From a virus, in the IMG/VR virus record IMGVR_UViG_3300002461_000164, positions 1 through 46,142 of that record: 46,142 nt of DNA, one strand, 5' to 3'. How positions within the stretch are numbered: position 1 is the first letter of the stretch; every line of letters starts with the position of its first letter. A program made the position numbers and the translations under genes. Of the stretch, positions 1-46,142 are shown piece by piece. The notes beneath the pieces were generated by a model that saw nothing but the letters and a program-made list of their open reading frames with translations, did no database searches and was not told the DNA's origin.

Positions 1-94
1 CGTCCAGTCGTTCACAGCTTCTCGCAATGCCCGCAAGCCGGCCGCGCTGATCTTGCCGTAAAACGGCTTTCCCGTCGGCGAGAATAAGCCATCA
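1..94. repeat. Terminal direct repeat, left copy (exact copy of 46049..46142)
   Basis: Bases 1-94 (cgtccagtcgttcacagc...gagaataagccatca) recur base-for-base as the last 94 bases of the window. The repeat lies inside an open reading frame. Confidence 0.97.
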
Positions 95-479: not shown

Positions 480-512
480 CAATTTAGTCGTTTGTTCCGC
501 ATTGTCAAGCGC
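480..512 (-). promoter_or_regulatory. Sigma70-like promoter module, copy A (GCGCTTGACAATGCGGAACAAACGACTAAATTG)
   Basis: Perfect -35 TTGACA (508..503), a 16-nt spacer and -10 TAAATT (486..481). The 33 nt are identical to 13394..13426, and 29 nt are identical to 14458..14486. Confidence 0.65.
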
Positions 513-11662: not shown

Positions 11663-11892
11663 CGCCGACAGAACTAGCACGCATCGTCGCGGATGATCTG
11701 CAGGGAACGGCCAAAAGCTTAACCGCTTCCCTGGACGCGTTTGATGCGGAAGGCATGGAAAATAACACCGAGTTTTGCGCCGAACTGGACCAGCTTGTTT
11801 TTCTCTGCGAACAATGCGGGTGGTGGTTTGAACAGTCGGAAATGGCGGACGACTGCGGCGACGATTGGAAATGCGAGGAATGCGGACAATGA
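11659..11892 (+). CDS. Hypothetical zinc-ribbon protein (77 aa)
   Basis: CEQCGWW...CEECG forms a four-Cys motif. ATGA-coupled. Confidence 0.65.
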   Translation: MTPTELARIVADDLQGTAKSLTASLDAFDAEGMENNTEFCAELDQLVFLCEQCGWWFEQSEMADDCGDDWKCEECGQ

Positions 11893-12779
11893 GCGACCTA
11901 TTCAGCCCGCCCGTCGTCACGCTCGGCGACTGCACAATCCACAACGGCGATATGCTCCAGGTTATCGCTGGCATGCCGGAAAACTCGATTGACGGCGTCT
12001 TGACCGATCCGCCCTATCACCTATCGAGCGTGACCAAGCGGCTCGGCAAGCCCGGCTCGGCGCCGATCGTGCACGGAACAGATGGTGCGTACGCCCGAGC
12101 CGCCCGCGGCTTCATGGGCAAGGAATGGGATGGCGGCGACATAGCGTTCCGGCCGGACACCTGGAGAACCGTGTTGCGCGTCATGAAGCCGGGCGCGCAT
12201 ATGCTGGTGTTCGGCGGATCGCGCACCGCGCACCGAATGTTCACCGCGATCGAAGATGCCGGCTTCAACGTGCGGGATTCGATCGCCTGGATATACGGTT
12301 CAGGCCATCCGAAATTGCCAGTGATCGTTCAGCGATTTGACGGTTACGCAATAGCGGTCAAGCCGAGCCATGAGCCTATTGCACTGTTCCGGAAAGACCT
12401 GGACGGCTCGACAAACGAAAACGTGTGGAAATGGGCAACTGGCGCGCTTAATATTGACGGCTGCAGATTTGGCGCCGACAATCGATTTCCCGGGAACGTG
12501 ATCCATGATGGATCGATACTCGGCGACGCGGCGCGCTATTTCTATCACGTCAAGGCGGACCGCGCCGACCGCAACGGCTCCAATCATCCGACTGTCAAGC
12601 CGATCAACCTTTTGCGGTATCTGTTGCGGCTGATCATGCCACCGGGCGGAACGGTCCTGGATAGTTTCGCCGGCACAGGCACAACGCTCGCCGCGGCTCG
12701 CCTGGAGGGTTTCCGATCGATCGGCGTGGAACGTGACGTCGGCTATTTCCTCGATATCAAAAGGAGAATGCAGCAATGA
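11889..12779 (+). CDS. Orphan DNA methyltransferase, N6_N4_Mtase family (beta-class, DPPY)
   Basis: Catalytic LTDPPYH lies near the N-terminus and the SAM motif DSFAGTGTT near the C-terminus. ATGA overlap at 11889. No cognate nuclease is nearby. Confidence 0.85.
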   Translation: MSDLFSPPVVTLGDCTIHNGDMLQVIAGMPENSIDGVLTDPPYHLSSVTKRLGKPGSAPIVHGTDGAYARAARGFMGKEWDGGDIAFRPDTWRTVLRVMKPGAHMLVFGGSRTAHRMFTAIEDAGFNVRDSIAWIYGSGHPKLPVIVQRFDGYAIAVKPSHEPIALFRKDLDGSTNENVWKWATGALNIDGCRFGADNRFPGNVIHDGSILGDAARYFYHVKADRADRNGSNHPTVKPINLLRYLLRLIMPPGGTVLDSFAGTGTTLAAARLEGFRSIGVERDVGYFLDIKRRMQQ

Positions 12780-13393: not shown

Positions 13394-13426
13394 GCGCTTG
13401 ACAATGCGGAACAAACGACTAAATTG
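13394..13426 (+). promoter_or_regulatory. Sigma70-like promoter module, copy B
   Basis: GCGCTTGACAATGCGGAACAAACGACTAAATTG has -35 at 13398..13403 and -10 TAAATT at 13420..13425. It is followed by the conserved CGGAGACGCCRCCATGACC leader. Confidence 0.65.
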
Positions 13427-13451
13427 AAGGAACACAAACGGAGACGCCACC

Positions 13452-13673
13452 ATGACCGCTCTTGACCGCATCGCCGCAGAACTCGCCAAGCCGGTGATTG
13501 CCCGCGTCGTGACTACGTACTCAGACGGTGCGACGAAGGCTCATGAAACGCGGTCACTTGGCGCCGCTGCAAATTGGGCAATTGGTGAACGTCGCAAAAT
13601 CGACCGCGATCTGATCGACCGCGAAACTGGAGAGATTGTCCGTGTCATAAGCGTCACAGTTGAGACGATCTGA
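13452..13673 (+). CDS. Hypothetical protein (73 aa)
   Basis: First ORF after promoter module B, with GGAGA 9 nt upstream. Confidence 0.7.
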   Translation: MTALDRIAAELAKPVIARVVTTYSDGATKAHETRSLGAAANWAIGERRKIDRDLIDRETGEIVRVISVTVETI

Positions 13674-13771
13674 TGCGCGTTTTTATCGGGATGGAAACCA
13701 GCGGCATGACCCGCCGCGCTTTCGAGGCGCGCGGGCATGACCCGCCGCGCTTTCGAGGCGCGCGGGCATGA
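13673..13771 (+). pseudogene. Truncated N-terminal fragment (32 aa) of the C5-methyltransferase-like gene, frameshifted by the 31-bp duplication
   Basis: TGATG overlap with the upstream stop. MRVFIGMETSGMTRRAFEARGHD then runs out of frame (PPRFRGARA) to TGA at 13769..13771. Confidence 0.6.
13705..13766. repeat. Perfect 31-bp tandem duplication (2 copies plus 6 nt of a third)
   Basis: catgacccgccgcgctttcgaggcgcgcggg occupies 13705..13735 and again 13736..13766, followed by catgac. Confidence 0.95.
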
Positions 13772-14357
13772 CGTTATCTCCTGCGATCTGTTGCCGGCCG
13801 ATGACGACGGAAGGCATATTATCGGCGACGTGTTCGAAACGCTCAAAAAGCTTCGTCACGCCGGTTGGTGGCCGCGTCTGGCGATCTTCCATCCAACATG
13901 CACCTATCTGACGTGTTCAGCAGAATGGGCCTACGGTGACGGTCCGTACCACCAGAAAGTGAAACCCGGAACGCTTGTCGGCGCCGCTCGGCGCCAAGCA
14001 CGAGAAAACGCAATCGCCGACGTGCTACGGATCGATTCGCTACCTATCGAATTCAAGGCCGTCGAAAATCCGATCGGCGTTCTATCAAGCCGCTGGCGCA
14101 AGCCTGACCAGATTATTCAGCCGTTTCAATTTGGCGATGATGCCAGCAAGCGAACCGGCCTGCATTTGACCAATCTTCCGCAATTGGAAATCGATCCTGC
14201 TTTGCGGTGTCCCGGCCGTATGGTCAACGGTGTTGAACGCTGGTCAAACCAGACGGATTCCGGTCAGTCAAATGTCGGACCTAGTGAAACCCGATGGAAG
14301 GACCGCAGCAAGACCTATCCGGGGATTTCCAATGCCTTTGCCCTTAATTGGGGTTGA
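13737..14357 (+). CDS. Short phage-type DNA cytosine-C5 methyltransferase-like protein, lacking its motif-I N-terminus (206 aa)
   Basis: IFHPTCTYL (PC-type motif IV) and AVENPIG (ENV-type motif VI). The frame restarts at the ATG inside duplication copy 2. Confidence 0.6.
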   Translation: MTRRAFEARGHDVISCDLLPADDDGRHIIGDVFETLKKLRHAGWWPRLAIFHPTCTYLTCSAEWAYGDGPYHQKVKPGTLVGAARRQARENAIADVLRIDSLPIEFKAVENPIGVLSSRWRKPDQIIQPFQFGDDASKRTGLHLTNLPQLEIDPALRCPGRMVNGVERWSNQTDSGQSNVGPSETRWKDRSKTYPGISNAFALNWG

Positions 14358-14427
14358 CCATATTCCGCCTCGCCGGCCGCAAACAGAAAGGACTAAGGCC
14401 CCAACACGGCGAGGCGGATAATTCGAA

Positions 14428-14456
14428 AGGCGGGAATCATTCCCGCCTCTTTTTTT
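14428..14456 (+). terminator. Rho-independent terminator
   Basis: AGGCGGGA-ATCAT-TCCCGCCT followed by CTTTTTTT. It lies immediately upstream of promoter module C. Confidence 0.85.
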
Positions 14457-14457
14457 G

Positions 14458-14486
14458 CTTGACAATGCGGAACAAACGACTAAATT
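14458..14486 (+). promoter_or_regulatory. Sigma70-like promoter module, copy C
   Basis: CTTGACAATGCGGAACAAACGACTAAATT is identical to copies A and B over 29 nt. -35 lies at 14459..14464 and -10 at 14481..14486. Confidence 0.65.
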
Positions 14487-14513
14487 CAGATCACACCAAC
14501 CGGAGACGCCGCC

Positions 14514-14765
14514 ATGACCTACGCCGAAGCAATCGCCGCTTATGAAGCCGCAAACGTCGAATGGGCGGAAGCTTGCCGCGTGTTCGACGTCGCAACCAAG
14601 GCTTTCCGCTCGGCGCCCGTCGCCGACTATGCAGCGTTCGGCGAGGCACAGAAGATTTTCGCAGCCGCAAAAGACAAGATCAACGCCGCACAGGACGCTA
14701 TTCCGGAGGAACCGGCCGCGGCGATCGAAGCTGAAACCGACGACCAGTCGGCATTTGATTTCTAA
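14514..14765 (+). CDS. Hypothetical Ala-rich helical protein (83 aa)
   Basis: First ORF after promoter module C, with the same CGGAGACGCCGCCATGACC leader as 13452. Confidence 0.7.
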   Translation: MTYAEAIAAYEAANVEWAEACRVFDVATKAFRSAPVADYAAFGEAQKIFAAAKDKINAAQDAIPEEPAAAIEAETDDQSAFDF

Positions 14766-14784
14766 TTTCACAGGAGCCGCCGCA

Positions 14785-15045
14785 ATGGTCCGCAGTCGCA
14801 AATACCAGTTTCACGCTTACCCCGGAGCGTATGACGGGACGCATGCCACGTTGGCGACCGTTACCGTGCACGTTCTCAATAGCGAAGCATCGGCGCGTGC
14901 TTATGCTGGTCGGATAGCGCGTCGCGTCAATGGTCCCGTCGACTTAGCTGTTGACGGAAAAGAGCCGTGGGAAGATCGTTATATAACGACCGCTCGCCCT
15001 AGTGAGTTTCACGTTTCAGGCTACGCATTCGAACGCCTCACCTAA
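14785..15045 (+). CDS. Hypothetical protein (86 aa)
   Basis: AGGAG lies 8 nt upstream of ATG 14785. The upstream part of track ORF 14542 overlaps the previous gene and is junk-like. Confidence 0.6.
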   Translation: MVRSRKYQFHAYPGAYDGTHATLATVTVHVLNSEASARAYAGRIARRVNGPVDLAVDGKEPWEDRYITTARPSEFHVSGYAFERLT

Positions 15046-15089
15046 CCGCGCCGGGACGGTCTCCCGGTCAACTCCAGGAAGGAACGACA

Positions 15090-15479
15090 ATGGACAATTT
15101 TAAGCTGGAAATGCGCAACCCTTTTGAGTTCGGCTTTTGCGCGTCATGGCAGAAAGACGGCAACGATTATCATACGTGGATCGACAACCGCGGCGACTAT
15201 GAGGGGAAGCTTTACCGTCGCGTCACGGGCGCCCCGTCGAGTTCCATCAAGACGCTCGACCTTTCCGCCAAGGTCCACACCGCGACCCGTTCAGCACTCG
15301 CCGAGCGCGTGACGCCGGAGACGATCGCCGCCGCTCGGGAAGCTTTCCAACGGCCGTTTATGCTTCCGCTCGACTGTCTGACCGCCCTGACGCCGGACGC
15401 ACGCGCCGCATTCGATCTGTTCATTGAAGCGGCGACGCCGGACGATATCAAGCTAGCCGCGCGCCTCTTGGCAAGTTGA
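15090..15479 (+). CDS. Hypothetical protein (129 aa)
   Basis: AGGAAGGA RBS. Its 3' end converges on, and overlaps by 32 nt, the 3' end of the primase gene. Confidence 0.7.
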   Translation: MDNFKLEMRNPFEFGFCASWQKDGNDYHTWIDNRGDYEGKLYRRVTGAPSSSIKTLDLSAKVHTATRSALAERVTPETIAAAREAFQRPFMLPLDCLTALTPDARAAFDLFIEAATPDDIKLAARLLAS

Positions 15480-17712
15480 CCAGCGATGGCGGCGTGAGGC
15501 TGCGATAGCCTTGCGCCAAAGCATATTCCTCGATTCCGATTGAACGGTTGTACAGCGTCCGATGCACGAACAGCACCGGACGTTTTCCGTCTTCCTCGCC
15601 GATCACCCGCGACACTCTCCCGACTTCCCGATACCCTAAAGACTCGAGCATCGGCGCGACTTTGTTGCGCGCGATCCGTAGTCCTTTTTCCTTCAACATC
15701 ACGTCCAGGGGATAGGACGATATCCAGCCGTTGCGGAATCCGGGTTCTTCCATCTTGATCATGTGCAGAATTTCTTGCTCGATACGGCCTAGACTCGCTT
15801 CAATTGCTTCGTCCGTCGTGCTGGTCTCGGGCGCCCTGTGACAGTCACCGGCCGGGTTCAGATCGGCGGGAATGGCATAATCCATCAGGTAATCCGTGAT
15901 CATTTCATAGCCGCCCGAGCGCGCCCAACGGTAAAGGTTCGGGAAATAGTCGCCGGTCATGCCGTAAAATGACAGATCGTCAAAAACTTGCTGTGCCGTG
16001 AAAAGCACCGCATATCGGCGATCGTTGCGCGTCTTCATGATGGCGTCACGATGGTTTGTGCAAAAAACCCAATTCGCAACGTTATCGATCATGCGCTTTT
16101 CACCGCCCTTGTTCTGGACTTCGATCCGCTCATTCGTGATCCACGGTTTCAGCGAGTCCAGGACTTCCCGGCGCTCCCGCATGTGGATTTCCTCGACGCC
16201 GATAAAAAGCTTGTTTTCCAAGAACGCGTTGAACTTGTTCGAAAGGTCTTCCGCGGCCGGCGAGTGCGAATAGCGGGCGCCGACGGCTGATGACAGATAC
16301 CGCGTGATAAACGATTTTCCGTTTCCTTCCACGCCCTGCAGCACCACCGCCCATTGAAATTTAACGCCAGGATTGCGGATCAGCGCCGCCATGTAAGCGA
16401 GCAAAATATCACGGTCCCGCTGATCGGGCAGAAGCTTTTTCAGGAACTCCACAAACGGCGAGATATCGCCGGGACGCCGCACCACCGGCTGCGGCTGATA
16501 GACATTGATCAGTCCGTTAATGATGACGCCGGGCGCCTCCAACGGACGAAAGCACATATCGAAAACCTTCGGGAAGTTCCATGCGCGGTTCTGCGTAAAC
16601 GCCTCGAATGCGTCGCGGCTCGGGCGCCCGTTGTCGCCTTGCATCTGGAATTCTTTCCCGCCGTACTGAACGCGGAACTGTTCTGGCTTTAGCAGATCGC
16701 CACCGGGCACCATGATTTTGTGCACGGCGCGGATATAGACACAGCCGGCGAACCACTCGACCATTTCGTTGATAGTCAGGAACTCGGCGGGATTGCGCGT
16801 CGCTTGTTCTTCGCGCGGGACATTGTAGACGCCTGTCTGTCCGGATATCGCGTTGCGGATCGTGTCAGCCGCATATTCCGGCCGCGATTCGTATTTCGGT
16901 CGCATCAGCATCGACCGACGGTAAAGCCTATCCATTCTGACCGGGTTTTTACCGGTCCAGAACGCCAGATGCGACATTAGGGCGGCATCGGCCCGGCTGC
17001 GGTCAAACACGTCGCCACCGACCGACGGGAACGCCTGGACAAGCGCCGCGGCGTCGCCGCTCCACAGTTCGGCGAATGTCGCCTTTGTGCCGAACGCGCC
17101 GCCGACGGATTTGGACCGCATAGCGAGCCGCAGCAATTCGTCATCATCGTTCGTGCCGGTCCACTCGGCGACGGCCTTATCTTCGAAAGCCGTCGTCACC
17201 AGTTCGGCCGGCGTTTTTGCCGGGACCATCTGCAACAGCGTCGCGGTGCAGTCCTTCCCGAAATCACCCGTGAAGCCGTGACCTAGCGCCATGAAGCGGC
17301 CGGCCGTGTAGAATTCGAGCCAGTTGCTAGGACGGTTCACGGTCCCGAATCTGTGCTTGCGATCCATCAGCCGGGATTTGTCGCATGTCCCGACGATGTG
17401 CAGTCCGGTTCCGCTTATCGAGATTTCCGCCGCGGCGCCTGCGAACTGTTGAAAAATCGCCGTCGCTTCGTCATTCCAGCCGTTGCCGGATCGGCAATCG
17501 TCCAGGTCCAGGAAAAAGAACGGATCGGCGTCAGTGAAGACGAATCCGACCGGATGGCCCGTCGCGGTTGCCTGATCGTGCGTCTTCCAATTTTCCGGTT
17601 TCAGATGGTCGATCGGAAAACCTGTGACCGCGTCAAACGGAACCTTTTTCGGCTTCTTGCCCGGTTCCGGCACGTAATGCCAGTTGATAAATTGTCGGTA
17701 TGTCCTGATCAT
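15448..17712 (-). CDS. Bifunctional primase-polymerase / SF3 (D5/P4-type) helicase
   Basis: N-terminal prim-pol-like region (FVFTDADPFFFLDLDD...SISGTGLHIV) and a P4-family C-terminal domain with Walker A GVEGNGKS. ATGA overlap with the upstream gene at 17709..17712. Confidence 0.85.
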   Translation of the reverse strand: MIRTYRQFINWHYVPEPGKKPKKVPFDAVTGFPIDHLKPENWKTHDQATATGHPVGFVFTDADPFFFLDLDDCRSGNGWNDEATAIFQQFAGAAAEISISGTGLHIVGTCDKSRLMDRKHRFGTVNRPSNWLEFYTAGRFMALGHGFTGDFGKDCTATLLQMVPAKTPAELVTTAFEDKAVAEWTGTNDDDELLRLAMRSKSVGGAFGTKATFAELWSGDAAALVQAFPSVGGDVFDRSRADAALMSHLAFWTGKNPVRMDRLYRRSMLMRPKYESRPEYAADTIRNAISGQTGVYNVPREEQATRNPAEFLTINEMVEWFAGCVYIRAVHKIMVPGGDLLKPEQFRVQYGGKEFQMQGDNGRPSRDAFEAFTQNRAWNFPKVFDMCFRPLEAPGVIINGLINVYQPQPVVRRPGDISPFVEFLKKLLPDQRDRDILLAYMAALIRNPGVKFQWAVVLQGVEGNGKSFITRYLSSAVGARYSHSPAAEDLSNKFNAFLENKLFIGVEEIHMRERREVLDSLKPWITNERIEVQNKGGEKRMIDNVANWVFCTNHRDAIMKTRNDRRYAVLFTAQQVFDDLSFYGMTGDYFPNLYRWARSGGYEMITDYLMDYAIPADLNPAGDCHRAPETSTTDEAIEASLGRIEQEILHMIKMEEPGFRNGWISSYPLDVMLKEKGLRIARNKVAPMLESLGYREVGRVSRVIGEEDGKRPVLFVHRTLYNRSIGIEEYALAQGYRSLTPPSLVNLPRGARLA

Positions 17713-17951
17713 GACTTGCCAAGCACCGACCATTGCCGCCGCACTTCGGCGCTCGCGCTCGGCGCCGAAACGATCGCCTGCCACAGTACCGGCTTGGTCG
17801 CAAAGTAGTGCCGGACCAATCGGACCGACATTGCGAACTCACACTCGGCGGCGATCCGCAGATGCGTGACCGATACCAACCCGTCACGATTGGCGAGTTC
17901 CACGCCCGTTGCAACGATCGCTCGCTGCCGCTGTTCCGCTGTTAAACGCAT
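17709..17951 (-). CDS. HTH-only TetR_N-like DNA-binding protein (80 aa)
   Basis: RQRAIVATGVELANRDGLVSVTHLRIAAECEFAMSVRLVRHYFATKPVLWQAIV follows the TetR N-terminal HTH pattern. No ligand-binding domain is present. Confidence 0.55.
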   Translation of the reverse strand: MRLTAEQRQRAIVATGVELANRDGLVSVTHLRIAAECEFAMSVRLVRHYFATKPVLWQAIVSAPSASAEVRRQWSVLGKS

Positions 17952-18412
17952 CGGCTTGTATAATCCTGACTGGACGTTGCGAACGTGGCGATCCCGCCCA
18001 TGCGTTCAACATCGGTTAAGAAATTGCGTTGCGCAATCTCCCGTTCCGTTCCGGTAAACTTCCATCCGGGTTTTTTTACTTCCACCGCAGTAAACACCCC
18101 AAAGATTCGACCGTGCCAGTTTATCGGCGTTATACCGATCAGATCAGACGACTTGAATACGGCATTGAATTTTGCACTGTCATTTGCCAGTCCGAACCTT
18201 ATCAAGCGGCTCGTTTCGTCAACCATTGCTCCAGAATTGTTGCGCCACAGGGAACCACCGAACCGCGGCGCCAACACGCGCAATTCAGCTTGTAACATAG
18301 CTTCCGATCCACCGGGTAGCGATTCGAAACCGGGCAAAAAAAGCGCCTGGAGTTCCGCCCATGCCTGCGGTGTTATGTTATTACGTATCGCCCAATCGTG
18401 AAGCCGGTTCAT
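17942..18412 (-). CDS. VRR-NUC domain nuclease
   Basis: SSDLIGI...FTAVEVKKPG...REIAQRNFLTDVERMGGIA matches the D...E-x-K and Q..F...G pattern of VRR-NUC. ATGA overlap at 18409..18412. Confidence 0.7.
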   Translation of the reverse strand: MNRLHDWAIRNNITPQAWAELQALFLPGFESLPGGSEAMLQAELRVLAPRFGGSLWRNNSGAMVDETSRLIRFGLANDSAKFNAVFKSSDLIGITPINWHGRIFGVFTAVEVKKPGWKFTGTEREIAQRNFLTDVERMGGIATFATSSQDYTSRCV

Positions 18413-18594
18413 TGCTCGGCGTCCTGGTGGAACCGCCAAACGTCGCCGTCTCGGCGCCACTCTCCCGAAACTGTCTCGATACGATCCGGCACGATATCGT
18501 CAGGATCGTAGTCGTATAAGAGCCGCAGTTCGCTTTCCGTCGCGTGCGGCTTCAACTGGTCAAGCAGGTGCATGACTTCCTGACTGTCGCTCAT
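18409..18594 (-). CDS. Hypothetical acidic protein (61 aa)
   Basis: ATGA overlap with the helicase stop (18591..18594). Sequence MSDSQEVMHLLDQLKPHATESEL... Confidence 0.55.
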   Translation of the reverse strand: MSDSQEVMHLLDQLKPHATESELRLLYDYDPDDIVPDRIETVSGEWRRDGDVWRFHQDAEQ

Positions 18595-20285
18595 GTGAAT
18601 TTTTCCCGTACCATTGCCGTTAATTTTAGCGCGTCCGGCGTCCCGAGCGTTTTTGCCGTCGCCACGTCGATCCCGAAAATATGATAAAATCGCCGATACA
18701 TTTCCGAATCTGATCGGCCGTACACGTCGCGGCCGATTCCCGCCCATAGCGCGATACACTCGCGCAATTGCGCCTGTGCTTCCTGACGCTCGCGCCAGCG
18801 CGCTTTGATAGCCAGGACGACATGCGGCGGCGCGTCGCGCGGTATCAGCGCCGGACCGTCTATCCGGTCCACTTCACCACGCATCGCCGCCAGCAACTCG
18901 GGCGAATATTCGGTTAGATCGCCGTCGACAAATGCCGGCGAGCCGCGGCCGATAACAGGCTGTGCCAATCCGCAGAACGGGCAAATCGACGTCACGCGCG
19001 GGAACGATCGGAAACAATGAACACAGGACGTCACCGGAATAACATCGTCATCTGTCGCACCGCGCCGGCCCGCCTCGATATCGTCCAATGACCACAGGCG
19101 CGGCCGATCTGGTGGCCCCTGGTGCCGCACCAGATTGCCGACGTGGTCGACGTAAATCCCGAACGGTTTCGGTCCCGCGGCGATCGAAGCGAGCCGGTCA
19201 GCATCCGTCACGCCGCGGCCGTTCGGATCGAACCCTTGACAATAGATCGGCCGCATCATCCGGCCGAACCGTTGCGCGTATGAGGCATAAGATTGCGTCG
19301 GCGCCCCGTCCTGGACGACTTCCACAACCGGGACGTCGGTTCCCTCGCCGAACAGTCCGACGTTGACCACGTTCAGCAACTCGCCGCGCGCCAGCTTTTC
19401 CAGGACACTAGTCCGAATGTGGTCCGGCGTCTCGGCACTTACCGCAGCGGACGGCACGCCGGCCGAGTTGAACGCCGCCGAAGTCTGAATTGCAATTTCG
19501 ACGTCGACCACAAATGATATCGCGCGTTTTCCAGGCACAAGCGCAATATAGTGCTTGATCATGTCTCCCGTGATGGTCGATTTATGCGCCGCCTTCCGCA
19601 ACGAATCTTGCTGGTAATCTCCCGTTGCGTCCGACGTGAGAACCTTGCTTAGATCGATCGATTGCGGCGGACCGAAACAAATATAATCGGATAGATATCC
19701 ACGGTTCACCAGTTCGCGCGGCGTCGGTCCAAGCACGATTTTATGAAAGACGCCCGATTTTTTGACGCCGAGCGCCTTCCGATCGGCGCGGACCGGAGTT
19801 GCGGTCAGTCCTAGACCATACGCGTTCCGGAAAAGAGCGACCGCCTTTCCCCATTTGTTATCACGCAAGACGTGGTGCGCTTCGTCAATATCCCACAATC
19901 GGATTTGATTAAAATATTGAACTAGCTGTTCAGTGCGGCGGATCAGCGTGTCAACACCCGCGACGGACGCATTTGCATTGTTATTGTGATACGATCGACC
20001 ATAATGCTTGACATGCTGCGTTATGCAGAACTGGATTACCGCTTTTGGTGCGATGATCCTATGATACACGCCATATTTCGCCATCGCTTTCGATATCTGC
20101 GATACAAGTTCTTGCCTATGCGCTATCGCAACGCTTGGCACGGGATTTTCTGAAAAGATCGACCCTTTGAGTTCCGTTTTTCCCGAGCCAGTCGGCGACA
20201 CGGCAAGTACATTCGGCGCACCTGACTGCCACGCTTCGTATATCCCGGCTTTAAGCTGTAACTGATAGTCGCGAAGAACTGGCAT
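18591..20285 (-). CDS. SF2 DEAD/DEAH-box DNA helicase with a C-terminal zinc ribbon
   Basis: LRDYQ..., Walker A SPTGSGKT, DEAH box (WDIDEAHH), and CVHCF...CPFCG. Confidence 0.85.
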   Translation of the reverse strand: MPVLRDYQLQLKAGIYEAWQSGAPNVLAVSPTGSGKTELKGSIFSENPVPSVAIAHRQELVSQISKAMAKYGVYHRIIAPKAVIQFCITQHVKHYGRSYHNNNANASVAGVDTLIRRTEQLVQYFNQIRLWDIDEAHHVLRDNKWGKAVALFRNAYGLGLTATPVRADRKALGVKKSGVFHKIVLGPTPRELVNRGYLSDYICFGPPQSIDLSKVLTSDATGDYQQDSLRKAAHKSTITGDMIKHYIALVPGKRAISFVVDVEIAIQTSAAFNSAGVPSAAVSAETPDHIRTSVLEKLARGELLNVVNVGLFGEGTDVPVVEVVQDGAPTQSYASYAQRFGRMMRPIYCQGFDPNGRGVTDADRLASIAAGPKPFGIYVDHVGNLVRHQGPPDRPRLWSLDDIEAGRRGATDDDVIPVTSCVHCFRSFPRVTSICPFCGLAQPVIGRGSPAFVDGDLTEYSPELLAAMRGEVDRIDGPALIPRDAPPHVVLAIKARWRERQEAQAQLRECIALWAGIGRDVYGRSDSEMYRRFYHIFGIDVATAKTLGTPDALKLTAMVREKFT

Positions 20286-20648
20286 TTATTCCCAACCGGC
20301 GAGCGTTACCGGAATTCCTGCAAATTTTGCTATGTTGATCATGTTGCGCGTTCCCTGGTGGCCCGGAAAAGCAATGACGCGATCCGGTTTCCAGTCCTCC
20401 ACCATCAGCGCATTGCGAATCGGTCCGGCCGCGCTATCATAACGATTCCACTGTGCCGGAACGCCGATAAACGGGATTTCCCGAGACAACGCCCATTCGA
20501 TCGCAAGCCAGTCCGCGCCGACATACCCGCCGCCGATTCGCTTCCGTTGCGCGCCGCAGATCAGTATCGAGACGTCGGCGGCGTCCAGCGTCTTACAGAC
20601 AAAGCCCGAGTCTCGATACGTCCGACCACCGCAAACCAAAACGCGCAT
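20286..20648 (-). CDS. SLOG-superfamily protein (DUF2493/YspA-like)
   Basis: MRVLVCGGRTYRD...GADWLAIEWA...AAGPIRNALM...VIAFPGHQGTRNMI follows the DUF2493 pattern. AGGGGA SD. Confidence 0.75.
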   Translation of the reverse strand: MRVLVCGGRTYRDSGFVCKTLDAADVSILICGAQRKRIGGGYVGADWLAIEWALSREIPFIGVPAQWNRYDSAAGPIRNALMVEDWKPDRVIAFPGHQGTRNMINIAKFAGIPVTLAGWE

Positions 20649-20721
20649 TTGGGATTCCCCTATTGACAGTTGTTAGCATTTATTGGCACTGTCGGTTTGT
20701 CAAGCAATGAAAGGAACCCGC
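20649..20721. promoter_or_regulatory. Divergent intergenic control region between the inverted replication module and the rightward replication genes
   Basis: TTGACA on the plus strand (20663..20668) and TTGACA on the minus strand (20703..20698, with TAAATG 15 nt downstream). The -10 elements are weak or uncertain. Confidence 0.35.
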
Positions 20722-21384
20722 ATGACAAAGAAACTCACCCTGACCATCGAAATTTCCGATGGGGAATATGAAGCACTGATCTCGCGCTTTTCGGGTACGG
20801 ATCGGCCTGTCTCGACCGGCGCGGATGCGTCTTCCTCGACCGAAACGGCGACGACGGCGACGACGGCAAGCGGATCGGGAACCGTCGACATGACCGCGCT
20901 GGACGTCAACGGCGTGCCGTGGCTCGAGTCGGTTCACGCCGGCACCAAGGCGAAGATTGGCGATGGAAGCTGGCGCGGCAAAGTCGGCGTGTCCAAGGAA
21001 CAGCGCGCCGCAGCAGAAGCGCCGTACCGCAACAAGCCGGCTGGTGGCGAGGCTTTCCAGGTTCCGGCGTCGATCGTCACACCCGGCGCCGCTCCCGGCT
21101 CGGCACCCGTGACCATCCCGGCCGGTCTCCCCGGTTTCCCGCCCGCAGGCGCCCCGGTCGGTCTCCCCGGTTTCCCGCCGGCCGCGCCGCCTCCGGTCAG
21201 CTATGACCAGATCGCCGCCCGCTATGGCGAACTCGCCGCGGCCGGCAAGGTGACTGCGGAAATGGTCCCGATCATCTATCAGCGCGCCGGCGTGTCCGAC
21301 GTCGCCGAACTGATGACGAACGAAAGTCTGCGGCGCAAGCTGATGGACGTTTTCGAGACTGTCGCGGCCGGAACGTTCGCGTAA
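20722..21384 (+). CDS. Hypothetical protein with a Thr/Ser-rich and Pro-rich repetitive centre (220 aa)
   Basis: AAAGGAA RBS before ATG 20722. It has a DVNGVPWLESVHAGTKAKIGDGSWRGKVG motif and a 36-bp DNA repeat (21124..21143 and 21160..21179) encoding GLPGFPPA. The antisense ORF 20680..21420 is Arg/Gly junk. Confidence 0.7.
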   Translation: MTKKLTLTIEISDGEYEALISRFSGTDRPVSTGADASSSTETATTATTASGSGTVDMTALDVNGVPWLESVHAGTKAKIGDGSWRGKVGVSKEQRAAAEAPYRNKPAGGEAFQVPASIVTPGAAPGSAPVTIPAGLPGFPPAGAPVGLPGFPPAAPPPVSYDQIAARYGELAAAGKVTAEMVPIIYQRAGVSDVAELMTNESLRRKLMDVFETVAAGTFA

Positions 21385-21396
21385 CGGTCCGACAAT

Positions 21397-21435
21397 CGCC
21401 GGCCGCACTACGGTTTCCACCGAATGCGGCCGGCG
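21397..21435 (+). terminator. Terminator-like 11-bp GC hairpin
   Basis: CGCCGGCCGCA-(17 nt)-TGCGGCCGGCG followed by TCATTCTTCA. The U-tract is weak. Confidence 0.45.
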
Positions 21436-21460
21436 TCATTCTTCATAGGGGTTTAGACAC

Positions 21461-21700
21461 ATGAGCGCCCGCGATCACTGGTCGACAGACGATTTGTGGA
21501 GGGATTGGCGGATTCATACCGTCAACGCCGCTCGATTGTCGCACCCATTCAAAAATTACGAAAAGATGCGCGCTAATTCTTCCATGCGGTCACTGATCGC
21601 TCGGCGCCCTGGTCTTTCCGCGCCTGACGAAAACGCCGCTGCGGCGATCGAAGGGCGGACGCCGTTCAGACGCGCCAACACGGCGAGGCCGCGCGCATGA
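21461..21700 (+). CDS. Hypothetical protein (79 aa)
   Basis: AGGGG RBS. ATGA overlap with the downstream nuclease gene. Confidence 0.6.
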   Translation: MSARDHWSTDDLWRDWRIHTVNAARLSHPFKNYEKMRANSSMRSLIARRPGLSAPDENAAAAIEGRTPFRRANTARPRA

Positions 21701-22785
21701 ATTCGCTGCAGCTTCGCCCGTCCGCTTCATATCGCTGGACCCGTTGCGCCGCGTCGGCGTCCTTTGAATCCACCGTGCCGCAAGAACCGGATAGCGACGA
21801 TGCGCGCGAAGGAACGTGCGCCGCATGGGTTGCCGACTGTGTCTTGCGTGGTGACGCGCACAGTGCCGGCGATCTGATCGACCGGAACCACGAAAACGGA
21901 TGGTTGGTAACGCCTGACATGGCGCAACACGTCCAGGGTTATGTTGATCTGGTCAAATCCCGCGGCGGGTTGACCACGTCGGAACAGTTCGTGCGGTTGA
22001 CGGAAAATATTGCCGGCACGCTCGATTCTTCCACCAGCGCAACGGGACCGTGTCTTTTCGTTGATGATCTGAAATACGGATTCAAGCTGGTCGAAGTTTG
22101 GGATTTGCCGCAACTGCTGATCTATGCCGGCGCCGAGTTGATGCGGCTCGGCTTTCCGCCGTCGATCACGCACGTTCAAATCGGCATTTACCAGCCGCGC
22201 GGTTTCCATCCCGACGGCATTTACCGCGTCCAAGTAATGACCGTCGCCGAGTTGTGGGAAAAAGTGCAATGGATCGTCGCGCGCTCGCACGAATGCCTTG
22301 CACCGCAGCCGATCGCGACACCCGGCCCGCAATGCACCGATTGCCGCGCCGCTTCGTCCTGTTACGCGCTTCTAGGCACGATCGCCGCGCAATGGTCCGT
22401 GCTGCAGGATCACCGTCAACGGCGCATGACTGCGGCGGAAGCGGCGCAACAATGGCTGTTCGTGGAAAACCTGGAAAAGATGGTCAAGGCGGCAAAATCC
22501 GCCTTGGACGCCGAGATTTCCGCGCGGATCAAGTCGGAACATTTTCCCGGTATTTACATGAAGCCGCGGACCGGGCATCGCAAATTCAAATATCCACCTG
22601 AAACCATCCGGTTCCTGACCGGCGTCGATCCGTTCGCCCGCGTGGCAATGACGCCGCCCGAACTGGAGCGCGCGGGCGCGGATGTTGGAATCGTCGCGGC
22701 TATTGCCGAGACGAATATAATCGGTCACAAACTCGACCGGTTAGGACCGAACCAAGTCAACAAAGCTTTCGCGAAAGGGAAGTGA
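21697..22785 (+). CDS. PD-(D/E)XK (Cas4/DUF2800-like) nuclease with Cys cluster
   Basis: N-terminal [15 protein letters not shown], a core FVDDLKYG...LVEV, and C-terminal [10 protein letters not shown]. This resembles the Cas4-like four-Cys arrangement. Confidence 0.65.
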
Positions 22786-22789
22786 CCAC

Positions 22790-23716
22790 ATGGCAAATTA
22801 TCTGAATTACGTTACGAACGTCGGACGGCTGATCGGCGGTTCATTGACCGATCTGGTCAAGACCGATCAGGACAATAAGCCGTTGCCGGAGGAAAAATGG
22901 CACTACAACATCGGAATCGCGTTCGAAAAGAACGACCCGCGGACGATCGCATTTCTCACGCCGATTTTCCCGTTCGTTTTCCAGGAGTACCAGTCCAAGC
23001 CGTACGTGGTCCAGGCCGCTAACAATTGTATGCAGACGGGATTTCCGGCTAAGGGCGGGTTTTCGTGGAAGATCAAGGACGGCGACAAGCCGAACGCGAA
23101 AGGCCAATTCAACGCCAACGCAAAAGGCTGTTGGGTTGTGTATATGTCGACGCAAATCCCGATCAAGGCCGTCAACACGATGAACGCCGAAATCGATCCG
23201 AAGTCCGTCAAGAATGGCTATTTTGTCGACGTCGCCGGCTCGATTTCGATCAACGGACTCGAAGGCGACCGCGCCGGCATTTACTGGAATCCCCGGTTTG
23301 TTCGCTTCGTCGCGTACGGCGAGGAAATCGTTTCCGGTCCGTCCGCCGAGCAGGCATTCGGCGCGGCGCCGGCTCCACAGGCCGGAGCGTTGCCCGCTGG
23401 TGCTTCAATGACGCCGATCGTGCCGCAAGGTGCTGGTGTGCCTGGAAACGGCTTGCCCGGTCAGATGCCCGGTCAGATGCCCGGTCAGATGCCGCAGGGC
23501 GGAATGCCCGGTCAGATGCCGCAGGGCGGAATGCCCGGTCAGATGCCGCAGGGCGGAATGCCCGGTCAGATGCCCGGTCAGATGCCGCAGGGCGGAATGC
23601 CGGGAGGCTTGCCGGCTGGTGCGCCCGCGGGTTTCCCAGGACAGATGCCGAACGCTGGCTCGCCGACTGGATTCCCTACTAACGCGCAACCCCATTACGG
23701 GTTTGTGCAGGGTTGA
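22790..23716 (+). CDS. T7 gp2.5-like (DUF2815-type) ssDNA-binding protein with a repetitive PGQM/PQGGM tail
   Basis: [16 protein letters not shown] resembles gp2.5 YKVDLTIPNKDPRC. It lies between the nuclease and polymerase genes and has a low-complexity Gly/Pro/Gln/Met C-terminus. Confidence 0.55.
23456..23603 (+). repeat. Coding microsatellite-like tandem repeats (12-nt cccggtcagatg and 27-nt cccggtcagatgccgcagggcggaatg units)
   Basis: Read directly. It encodes (PGQM)n and (PGQMPQGGM)n. Confidence 0.9.
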
Positions 23717-45915: not shown

Positions 45916-46142
45916 AAGCCCTGGAGAAAACCATGAAATCCCTGATCATTCTTGCCGCTTCGTTCCTTGTCATTTCGCCCCGTTCCGGCGACACCCCGGC
46001 ACCGTCCGCGCCGAGCGCGCCGTCTGTGTCGAGCGCGGCAAGTTCCGGCGTCCAGTCGTTCACAGCTTCTCGCAATGCCCGCAAGCCGGCCGCGCTGATC
46101 TTGCCGTAAAACGGCTTTCCCGTCGGCGAGAATAAGCCATCA
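45914..46142 (-). CDS. 3' part of the junction-spanning gene (46049..46142 duplicates 1..94). Stop TAA at 45916..45914.
   Basis: Hand translation continues ...NDWT|PELAALDTDGALGADGAGVSPERGEMTRNEAARMIRDFMVFSRA* in phase with the frame leaving base 1. Confidence 0.5.
   Translation of the reverse strand, partial: DGLFSPTGKPFYGKISAAGLRALREAVNDWTPELAALDTDGALGADGAGVSPERGEMTRNEAARMIRDFMVFSRA
46049..46142. repeat. Terminal direct repeat, right copy (exact copy of 1..94)
   Basis: Identical to bases 1..94. Confidence 0.97.

Follow-up and report, generated by a model that had tools for sequence, protein, structure and literature searches.

The window analysed here, a 46,142 nt stretch of viral DNA, encodes a predicted C5-cytosine-methyltransferase-like protein, and the 5′ end of its gene is interrupted by a tandem duplication of 31 bp. 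The locus raises the question of whether this gene has been inactivated by a recent mutation, is switched on and off through gain or loss of a repeat unit, operates as a deliberately split gene, or was broken only during assembly, all of which were put forward as options in a preliminary description of the sequence. In our view, a phage of ~46 kb has likely lost the function of an accessory C5-cytosine-methyltransferase-like gene to a recent, spontaneous slippage duplication.

The duplication is perfect, as first described, with positions 13705 to 13735 identical to positions 13736 to 13766. Identity of the units continues for another 2 nt on the left side and 6 nt on the right side, giving a perfect period-31 tract of 70 nt (TRF: 2.3 copies; 100% matches; score: 140) with the structure GGCATGAC-N23-GGCATGAC-N23-GGCATGAC, such that the same 8 nt microhomology is found at each of the three repeat junctions (Table 1). 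Perfect tandem duplications with a period of 15 to 100 were absent from all of 200 random sequences generated under a first-order Markov model with the size and composition of the window, and as such the repeat is no chance feature. The start codon at position 13673 overlaps the stop codon of the upstream 73 amino acid gene in a TGATG, in agreement with the coupling proposed earlier. Since 31 is not a multiple of three, translation from this native coupled start stops after 32 amino acids, at position 13771, while the long reading frame restarts at the duplicated ATG (13737) as a 206 amino acid product devoid of the FIGMETSG segment; the early stop and the restart are as previously reported. 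Deletion of one unit leaves an open reading frame of 654 nt, so that the 217 amino acid protein predicted for a one-copy gene was also recovered. With three units the reading frame is still broken and, by arithmetic, it would be restored only at four copies (+93 nt).

Table 1. Positions of the features of the disrupted gene and its flanking region in the window.
Feature	Position	Strand	Basis
Sigma-70-like promoter element heading the two-gene unit	13398..13425	+	TTGACA, 16 nt, TAAATT; 10/12 consensus matches
73 amino acid gene upstream of the methyltransferase-like gene, no assigned function	13452..13673	+	ORF list
5′ remnant ORF, 32 amino acids: MRVFIGMETSGMTRRAFEARGHD and nine out-of-frame residues	13673..13771	+	ORF list
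Tandem duplication tract, 2.26 copies	13703..13772	.	TRF and sequence comparison
GGCATGAC microhomology, copy 1	13703..13710	.	
GGCATGAC microhomology, copy 2 (novel junction); holds the ATG (13737) of the 206 amino acid ORF	13734..13741	.	
GGCATGAC microhomology, copy 3; holds the TGA (13769-13771) ending the 32 amino acid ORF	13765..13772	.	
206 amino acid body of the C5-methyltransferase-like gene, without residues 1-11 of the intact protein	13737..14357	+	ORF list
Intrinsic terminator closing the two-gene unit (9 bp stem, T-run)	14428..14458	+	

Further tandem repeats can be observed in the window. The only other perfect long-period duplication detected by TRF is a coding 27 nt array (23454-23601), which is in frame (periods 12 and 27) within an ORF at 22790..23716 (+), downstream of a DUF2800 gene. 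The ORF encodes a 308 amino acid protein with a C-terminal tail rich in Pro, Gly and Gln, in which the array gives rise to a run of MPGQ and MPQGG repeats. Contigs assembled at k=31 break at this array, which may vary in size between genomes. An imperfect, GC-rich 36 nt tandem repeat (21117..21198; 2.3 copies; 82% matches) overlaps the ORFs at 20680..21420 (-) and 20683..21384 (+).

The one-copy protein matches the PHROG profile phrog_757, annotated as ′DNA methyltransferase′ (e-value: 2.5e-45), with residues 1-217 aligning to positions 15-219 of the 247 in the profile. More than 7,900 homologues were found at an e-value of at most 1e-3, and for almost every one of the top 120 the alignment spans 100% of the one-copy reconstruction. 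Homologues are furthermore encoded in 157 cultured-phage records in GenBank, where they are annotated as DNA methyltransferase, cytosine methyltransferase or hypothetical protein; the hosts of these phages include Sinorhizobium, Rhizobium, Ruegeria, Pseudomonas, Burkholderia, Flavobacterium and Prochlorococcus. PHROG 757 members such as those of Sinorhizobium phage phiM6, Rhizobium phage Pasto and Ruegeria phage DSS3-P1, as well as P-SSP7 gp12 and Bcep1 gp12, share 40-52% amino acid identity with the one-copy protein over residues 1-217, although the family name is an annotation and the duplication is seen only in the copy in the window. In the literature, nothing specific was found on a characterised member of this family of short phage C5-methyltransferase-like proteins.

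An AlphaFold2 model of the one-copy protein, built with 34 homologues, has a pLDDT of 91.2 and a pTM of 0.88. Foldseek comparison of this model against the PDB placed DNMT3A/3B, M.HaeIII, DNMT1, Dnmt2 and M.HhaI on top (probability: 1.00; TM: ~0.4-0.54), and its viral matches in BFVD are cytosine methyltransferases. The one-copy protein matched neither Pfam PF00145, even at an e-value of up to 1, nor any NCBIfam model. A sequence search of the PDB with the family profile likewise found nothing, and hhalign of this profile against an approximate M.HhaI sequence gave no signal (probability: 0.1), so that the link to the C5-methyltransferases is drawn from fold comparison only. The earlier designation of the product as C5-methyltransferase-like is therefore supported by the predicted structure at the level of the fold, while PF00145 membership at the level of the sequence is not.

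Mapping of the invariant residues onto the model places G6-M7-E8-T9-S10-G11 directly after strand β1 (residues 2-6), D28 at the end of β2 and G41-D42-x-F44 after β3. The invariant H63-P64-x-C66 follows the predicted strand β4 (residues 59-62), with a PxC rather than a PC spacing, and E121-N122-P123 ends the predicted strand β5 (residues 117-123). By their location these two are candidates for the catalytic Pro-Cys (motif IV) and the Glu-Asn-Val (motif VI), respectively. The phage protein resembles the C5-cytosine DNA methyltransferases (PF00145; M.HhaI, M.HaeIII, DNMT3) in its fold, as judged by Foldseek, and its conserved acidic residues, Pro-x-Cys and Glu-Asn-Pro lie where motifs II, III, IV and VI would be expected. 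It differs from them in its length of 217 amino acids, without a large target-recognition domain, and in its motif I, which is GxE(T/Y)SG in the phage family and FxGxG in the C5-methyltransferases. No domain-sized insert that could represent a target-recognition domain was found in the 217 residues, the region from residue 157 to 196 being short; the 10-residue blocks modelled with the lowest confidence (pLDDT: 66-68) lie between these two residues. Among 80 viral relatives the motif G.E[ST]SG occurs in fourteen, while distant relatives carry CEYSG or GYSxCP. Across phrog_757, motif I reads GxE[TY]SG, or GYSxCP in a subgroup, and HPxC replaces PC.

The segment separated from the body of the protein by the duplication is conserved. 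In the 34 homologues, E8, S10 and G11 of FIGMETSG are invariant and G6, M7 and T9 are conserved in at least 90%, while Met12, which corresponds to the restart codon, may be M, V, E, A, R, T or Q. Given a conserved N-terminal segment followed by a variable Met12, the homologues do not begin naturally at the internal methionine, a possibility which had been raised in the preliminary description. According to the model, the 32 amino acid stub contains strand β1, the glycine loop equivalent to motif I and helix A (strand: residues 2-6; helix: residues 12-19), whereas the 206 amino acid product starts at helix A. The G-x-E-x-S-G loop is in frame with the body of the protein in all 80 viral relatives and in the one-copy reconstruction, but lies on a separate 32 amino acid ORF in the window, and the gene is therefore a disrupted member of the PHROG 757 family. 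The severing of an N-terminal motif reported earlier is thereby borne out, as the conserved β1 strand and glycine loop are now located on the stub. As for its identification as a SAM-binding motif, the conservation of the segment is clear, but the role in cofactor binding is deduced from its position in the fold, motif I is non-canonical and PF00145 is unmatched.

In Rossmann-type methyltransferases β1 is the central strand and the loop that follows it contacts the cofactor. Lacking both the central β1 strand and this loop, the 206 amino acid product is, on the basis of the model, most probably inactive. A GAGG located 9 nt upstream of the ATG at 13737 suggests that this fragment may well be translated. 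We infer a loss of function, while noting that the 32 amino acid stub could in principle complement the 206 amino acid fragment.

All 80 viral relatives from IMG/VR gave a single in-frame match to the gene, with none frameshifted, where the in-frame test consisted of a single HSP across the gene; the match starts within residues 1-3 in 78 of them. A comparable tandem repeat at the gene was likewise absent from the 80 relatives. Comparison by blastn against GenBank phages identified no close relative, the best match being 77% over 88 nt, and exact-pattern scans with the right flank in IMG/VR and the JGI metagenome contigs retrieved no further alleles of this phage. In five Burkholderia phage genomes the homologous gene is found in two pieces. 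In vB_FKKS2 (PV072744.1), the one which was aligned, one C has been lost from a run of five, changing GAGACCCCCGG to GAGA-CCCCGG, while the gene is intact in its relative vB_SBP9 (PQ789808.1). The split in vB_FKKS2 is either a second, independent disruption in the family or a homopolymer sequencing error.

These comparisons bear on whether the 206 amino acid product, alone or together with the 32 amino acid peptide, could still be active, with the duplication being neutral or adaptive. Both ORFs have plausible starts, one coupled through TGATG and the other preceded by GAGG at 9 nt, and the two-copy allele occurs in several samples. However, the missing segment includes the central β1 strand with three invariant residues, it is in one piece with the body in all of the viral relatives, and 155 of the 157 matches in cultured phages have a query coverage of at least 80%. 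Helix A would furthermore be present twice across the two fragments, and with two completely identical units the gene would have had no time to adapt to being split. A functional split is therefore very unlikely, and the absence of any split among the 80 relatives, together with the loss of invariant residues, argues against the deliberately split gene suggested earlier. Programmed frameshifting that would rejoin the two frames was also considered, but no slippery motif was found on reading the 13737..13771 overlap and no relative makes use of it.

The window corresponds to a MEGAHIT contig (k=127) of run SRR2905841 (ENA: ERZ922821), with the locus showing 100% identity. A second MEGAHIT k=127 contig of the same size, from SRR2905840 (ERZ922814), is rotated relative to the first and also contains two copies, differing at a single position over 5.4 kb. 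PRJNA301005, the project from which both runs derive, is a drinking-water system metagenome (Pinto et al.; PMC4863621), for which the ENA record names read activated-carbon metagenome. Positions 1..94 of the window are repeated exactly at 46049..46142 (64 shared 31-mers), and both source contigs are 46,175 nt in size, which would correspond to a genome of 46,048 bp if the overlap is the usual 127 nt circular overlap of MEGAHIT. The terminal repeat and the shared contig size suggest that the phage genome is complete and was assembled as a circle.

At k=127, 118 k-mers are private to the two-copy allele, and at k=27 there are 18. Since only 8 nt are common to the new junction, a de Bruijn assembler using k of 21 or more cannot make this junction from one-copy reads. 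Furthermore, a Logan contig (k=31) from the unrelated run SRR28154530, of which 3,023 nt were retrieved and show 100% identity, starts exactly at position 13743, with the 31-mer that directly follows the nine common to both units. The graph branches at this position only if the junction k-mers are present, and the break thus supports the two-copy allele. Two Logan contigs, one of them that of SRR28154530, have their start at position 13743 and carry the same edge-truncated product of 204 amino acids. The two-copy allele is real and is present in several samples.

The contrary proposition, that the genome has one copy and that the second unit was introduced in assembly or arose when the polymerase slipped as the library was made, could draw on the GC-rich hairpin formed by the tract, which makes for a difficult template, and on a second assembler giving one copy from the same run. 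The private k-mers of the two-copy allele are, however, impossible to obtain from one-copy reads, two independent MEGAHIT assemblies agree on two copies, and contigs of other runs at k=31 break exactly where junction k-mers would branch the graph. Slippage in a library would affect only a small share of the reads and would not yield the consensus of several libraries, while a one-copy Logan contig is the expected collapse when the period equals k. An artefact is as such barely credible, and the assembly option raised in the preliminary description is effectively ruled out by the private k-mers, the paired MEGAHIT assemblies and the Logan breaks.

The one-copy sequence in question came to light through protein clustering. 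At 90% identity the cluster of the 206 amino acid product has one other member, P0121, which is exactly the reconstructed 217 amino acid protein and is encoded on a 10,055 nt Logan contig (L003; SRR2905841_14317) from the same run as the window. L003 is 100% identical to positions 13398..23483 of the window except for one missing unit, and SRR2905841 thus yields two copies with MEGAHIT and one copy in Logan. Logan assemblies are built at k=31 in such a way that no 31-mer can occur twice within the contigs of an accession (PMC12424806). Nine 31-mers do occur twice in the two-copy tract, and a repeat of period 31 is therefore not representable in Logan, so that the one-copy contig does not prove that such an allele exists. 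For k up to 40, moreover, there are no k-mers private to the one-copy allele, and as such the one-copy path exists in the graph even if every read carries two copies. L003 was rejected as proof of a one-copy allele on the basis of this k-mer analysis and the statement in the Logan methods.

L003 ends at repeats on both sides, namely a 34 nt inverted repeat (13394-13427) and the coding array (from 23465), and Logan passes through the duplication site in SRR2905841 while breaking there in other runs. Under the pruning rules of Minia, passing through suggests a relatively low depth of the junction k-mers in SRR2905841, whereas MEGAHIT, in which bubble popping keeps the deeper branch, chose two copies in both runs. 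No single allele fraction accounts under these rules for both a two-copy majority in MEGAHIT and the pass-through in Logan. A mixed population of one- and two-copy genomes is possible.

Such a mixture would be expected if the site were a contingency locus, with genomes of one copy (ON) and of two copies (OFF) present side by side and each giving rise to the other when slippage occurs at the hairpin and microhomology, and we regard this as unlikely. With the switch, the phage could alter its expression of a DNA-modifying enzyme as it meets hosts whose restriction is methylation-dependent or methylation-sensitive, which is unlikely to the same degree. The Logan contig of SRR2905841 does run through the site with one copy where those of other runs break, and does so despite breaking at other repeats of equal coverage at both of its ends; coexisting alleles would be more in keeping with a polymorphism or switch than with a mutation that is fixed. 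By its structure the site lends itself to slippage in either direction, and a Burkholderia phage lineage of the same family carries an apparent homopolymer frameshift. Against this, the one-copy contig is no evidence of one-copy reads, given the lack of private k-mers at k up to 40, and MEGAHIT selected the two-copy form in both runs. There are also only two copies, rather than a multi-unit array as in known contingency loci, and the hairpin and 8 nt repeat are not conserved, with none of the 80 relatives showing the repeat or a frameshift. The lack of conservation, repeat or frameshift among the relatives gives no sign of selection for switching, and the on/off contingency switch of the preliminary description thus remains unsupported by comparative data. 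It is quite unlikely that the population holds both alleles and that the site truly switches back and forth, being ON with one unit and OFF with two.

The closest parallel to such a switch is found in the phasevarions, in which simple-sequence repeats occur in bacterial mod genes. As in the mod genes of Haemophilus, Neisseria and Helicobacter, a repeat that is not a multiple of three lies near the 5′ end of a methyltransferase gene, where the gain or loss of a unit toggles the frame. The bacterial loci, however, comprise many units of 1-5 nt, in contrast to two copies of 31 nt in the phage, are conserved across strains, unlike the phage repeat which is shared by none of the 80 relatives, and belong to Type III or Type I systems, while the phage enzyme is an orphan C5-like protein. 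Nothing specific was found in the literature on tandem-duplication switches in phage methyltransferases. If the switch were real, it would represent a phasevarion-like system in a virus, based on a long unit of 31 nt, and would provide bet-hedging between hosts with modification-sensitive and modification-dependent restriction.

The reading which we favour, a recent inactivating mutation as listed among the original options, is consistent with the 100% identity of the units, which marks the event as recent, and with the absence of frameshifts in the 80 relatives. The ends of the 39 nt one-copy tract form a direct repeat of the 8 nt GGCATGAC, and as single-stranded DNA this tract is predicted to fold into a hairpin of 14 pairs (-15.2 kcal/mol; z=-4.1), with none of 200 shuffled sequences being as stable. 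When folded with RNA parameters at the homologous position, the relatives average -11.1 kcal/mol as compared to -23.2 kcal/mol here, and three of 79 are as stable, while an 8 nt direct repeat near the homologous position occurs in two of the 80. As hairpin and repeat are largely absent from the relatives, the site is a local accident of codon choice and no conserved device.

We suggest the following course of events. In the ancestral one-copy gene, the SGMTRRAFEARGHD codons would have formed a 39 nt quasi-palindrome with GGCATGAC at both ends. Replication may have paused at the hairpin formed by this tract, whereupon the nascent 3′ end, having just copied the distal GGCATGAC, could have re-paired with the proximal GGCATGAC. 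The intervening 31 nt would then have been copied a second time, producing the tandem duplication, after which the rest of the methyltransferase-like protein would be made only from the duplicated ATG, without the β1 strand and the glycine-rich loop. As with any tandem duplication, the two-copy allele could revert precisely through reverse slippage. Quasi-palindromes and short direct repeats are reportedly associated with spontaneous frameshift and duplication mutations in the Streisinger model and in the work of Ripley, of Lovett, and of Bi and Liu. The locus resembles slipped-strand duplications in Escherichia coli and phage genes in its perfect head-to-tail copy, the microhomology at three junctions, the hairpin, the frameshift and the potential for precise reversion. 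It differs in nothing essential, although it comes from an uncultured phage population rather than a genetic screen and its mechanism is read from the sequence. The duplication is a real mutation that probably arose through ordinary replication slippage and reflects no new kind of system. That slippage was the mechanism, that activity was lost and that the gene is dispensable are all inferred.

The disrupted gene forms part of a compact two-gene unit delimited by a near-consensus promoter element and a strong intrinsic terminator (Table 1). Its partner, the 73 amino acid protein, had no match in PHROG, and a homologue of the gene was found in one of the 80 relatives, where it lies on the opposite strand, indicating that it does not travel with the methyltransferase-like family. 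The unit is flanked by a gene for an N6/N4 methyltransferase (11865..12779) and by a primase-polymerase/VapE-like gene which is encoded on the opposite strand. The loss of the C5-methyltransferase-like protein may be tolerated owing to the presence of this second methyltransferase and the self-contained nature of the promoter-to-terminator cassette, and an accessory role and the dispensability of the gene are plausible.

The 28 nt promoter element, TTGACA ATGCGGAACAAACGAC TAAATT, is present in three identical copies in the window (481..508 on the minus strand, 13398..13425 and 14459..14486 on the plus strand), where none would be expected by chance, and the third copy starts directly after the terminator. 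It probably represents an early or middle promoter of the phage which is reused for separate small cassettes. The second copy lies within the segment 13394-13427, which forms a 34 nt inverted repeat with 479-512 and at which L003 ends.

A methodological by-product concerns the use of k=31 assemblies. The same run gave different alleles at k=31 and k=127 since a tandem repeat of period k is not representable, and the ′repaired′ protein P0121 may exist only for this reason. Where gene integrity is called from Logan contigs or proteins, such duplications silently collapse or break the contigs, and the collapse at k=31 may place ′repaired′ proteins in catalogues. We regard this as the most useful by-product of the analysis.

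The phenomenon is well known, while the instance is new. Its importance is modest, in that an uncultured phage here provides a clean natural example of a duplication, driven by a hairpin and microhomology, that would have disabled an accessory gene for DNA modification. The affected family is large, with its more than 7,900 members and 157 cultured-phage records being covered by no Pfam or NCBIfam model, and its methyltransferase activity is predicted. The presence of the broken allele in several samples suggests that the gene is dispensable there or that the phage population is polymorphic.
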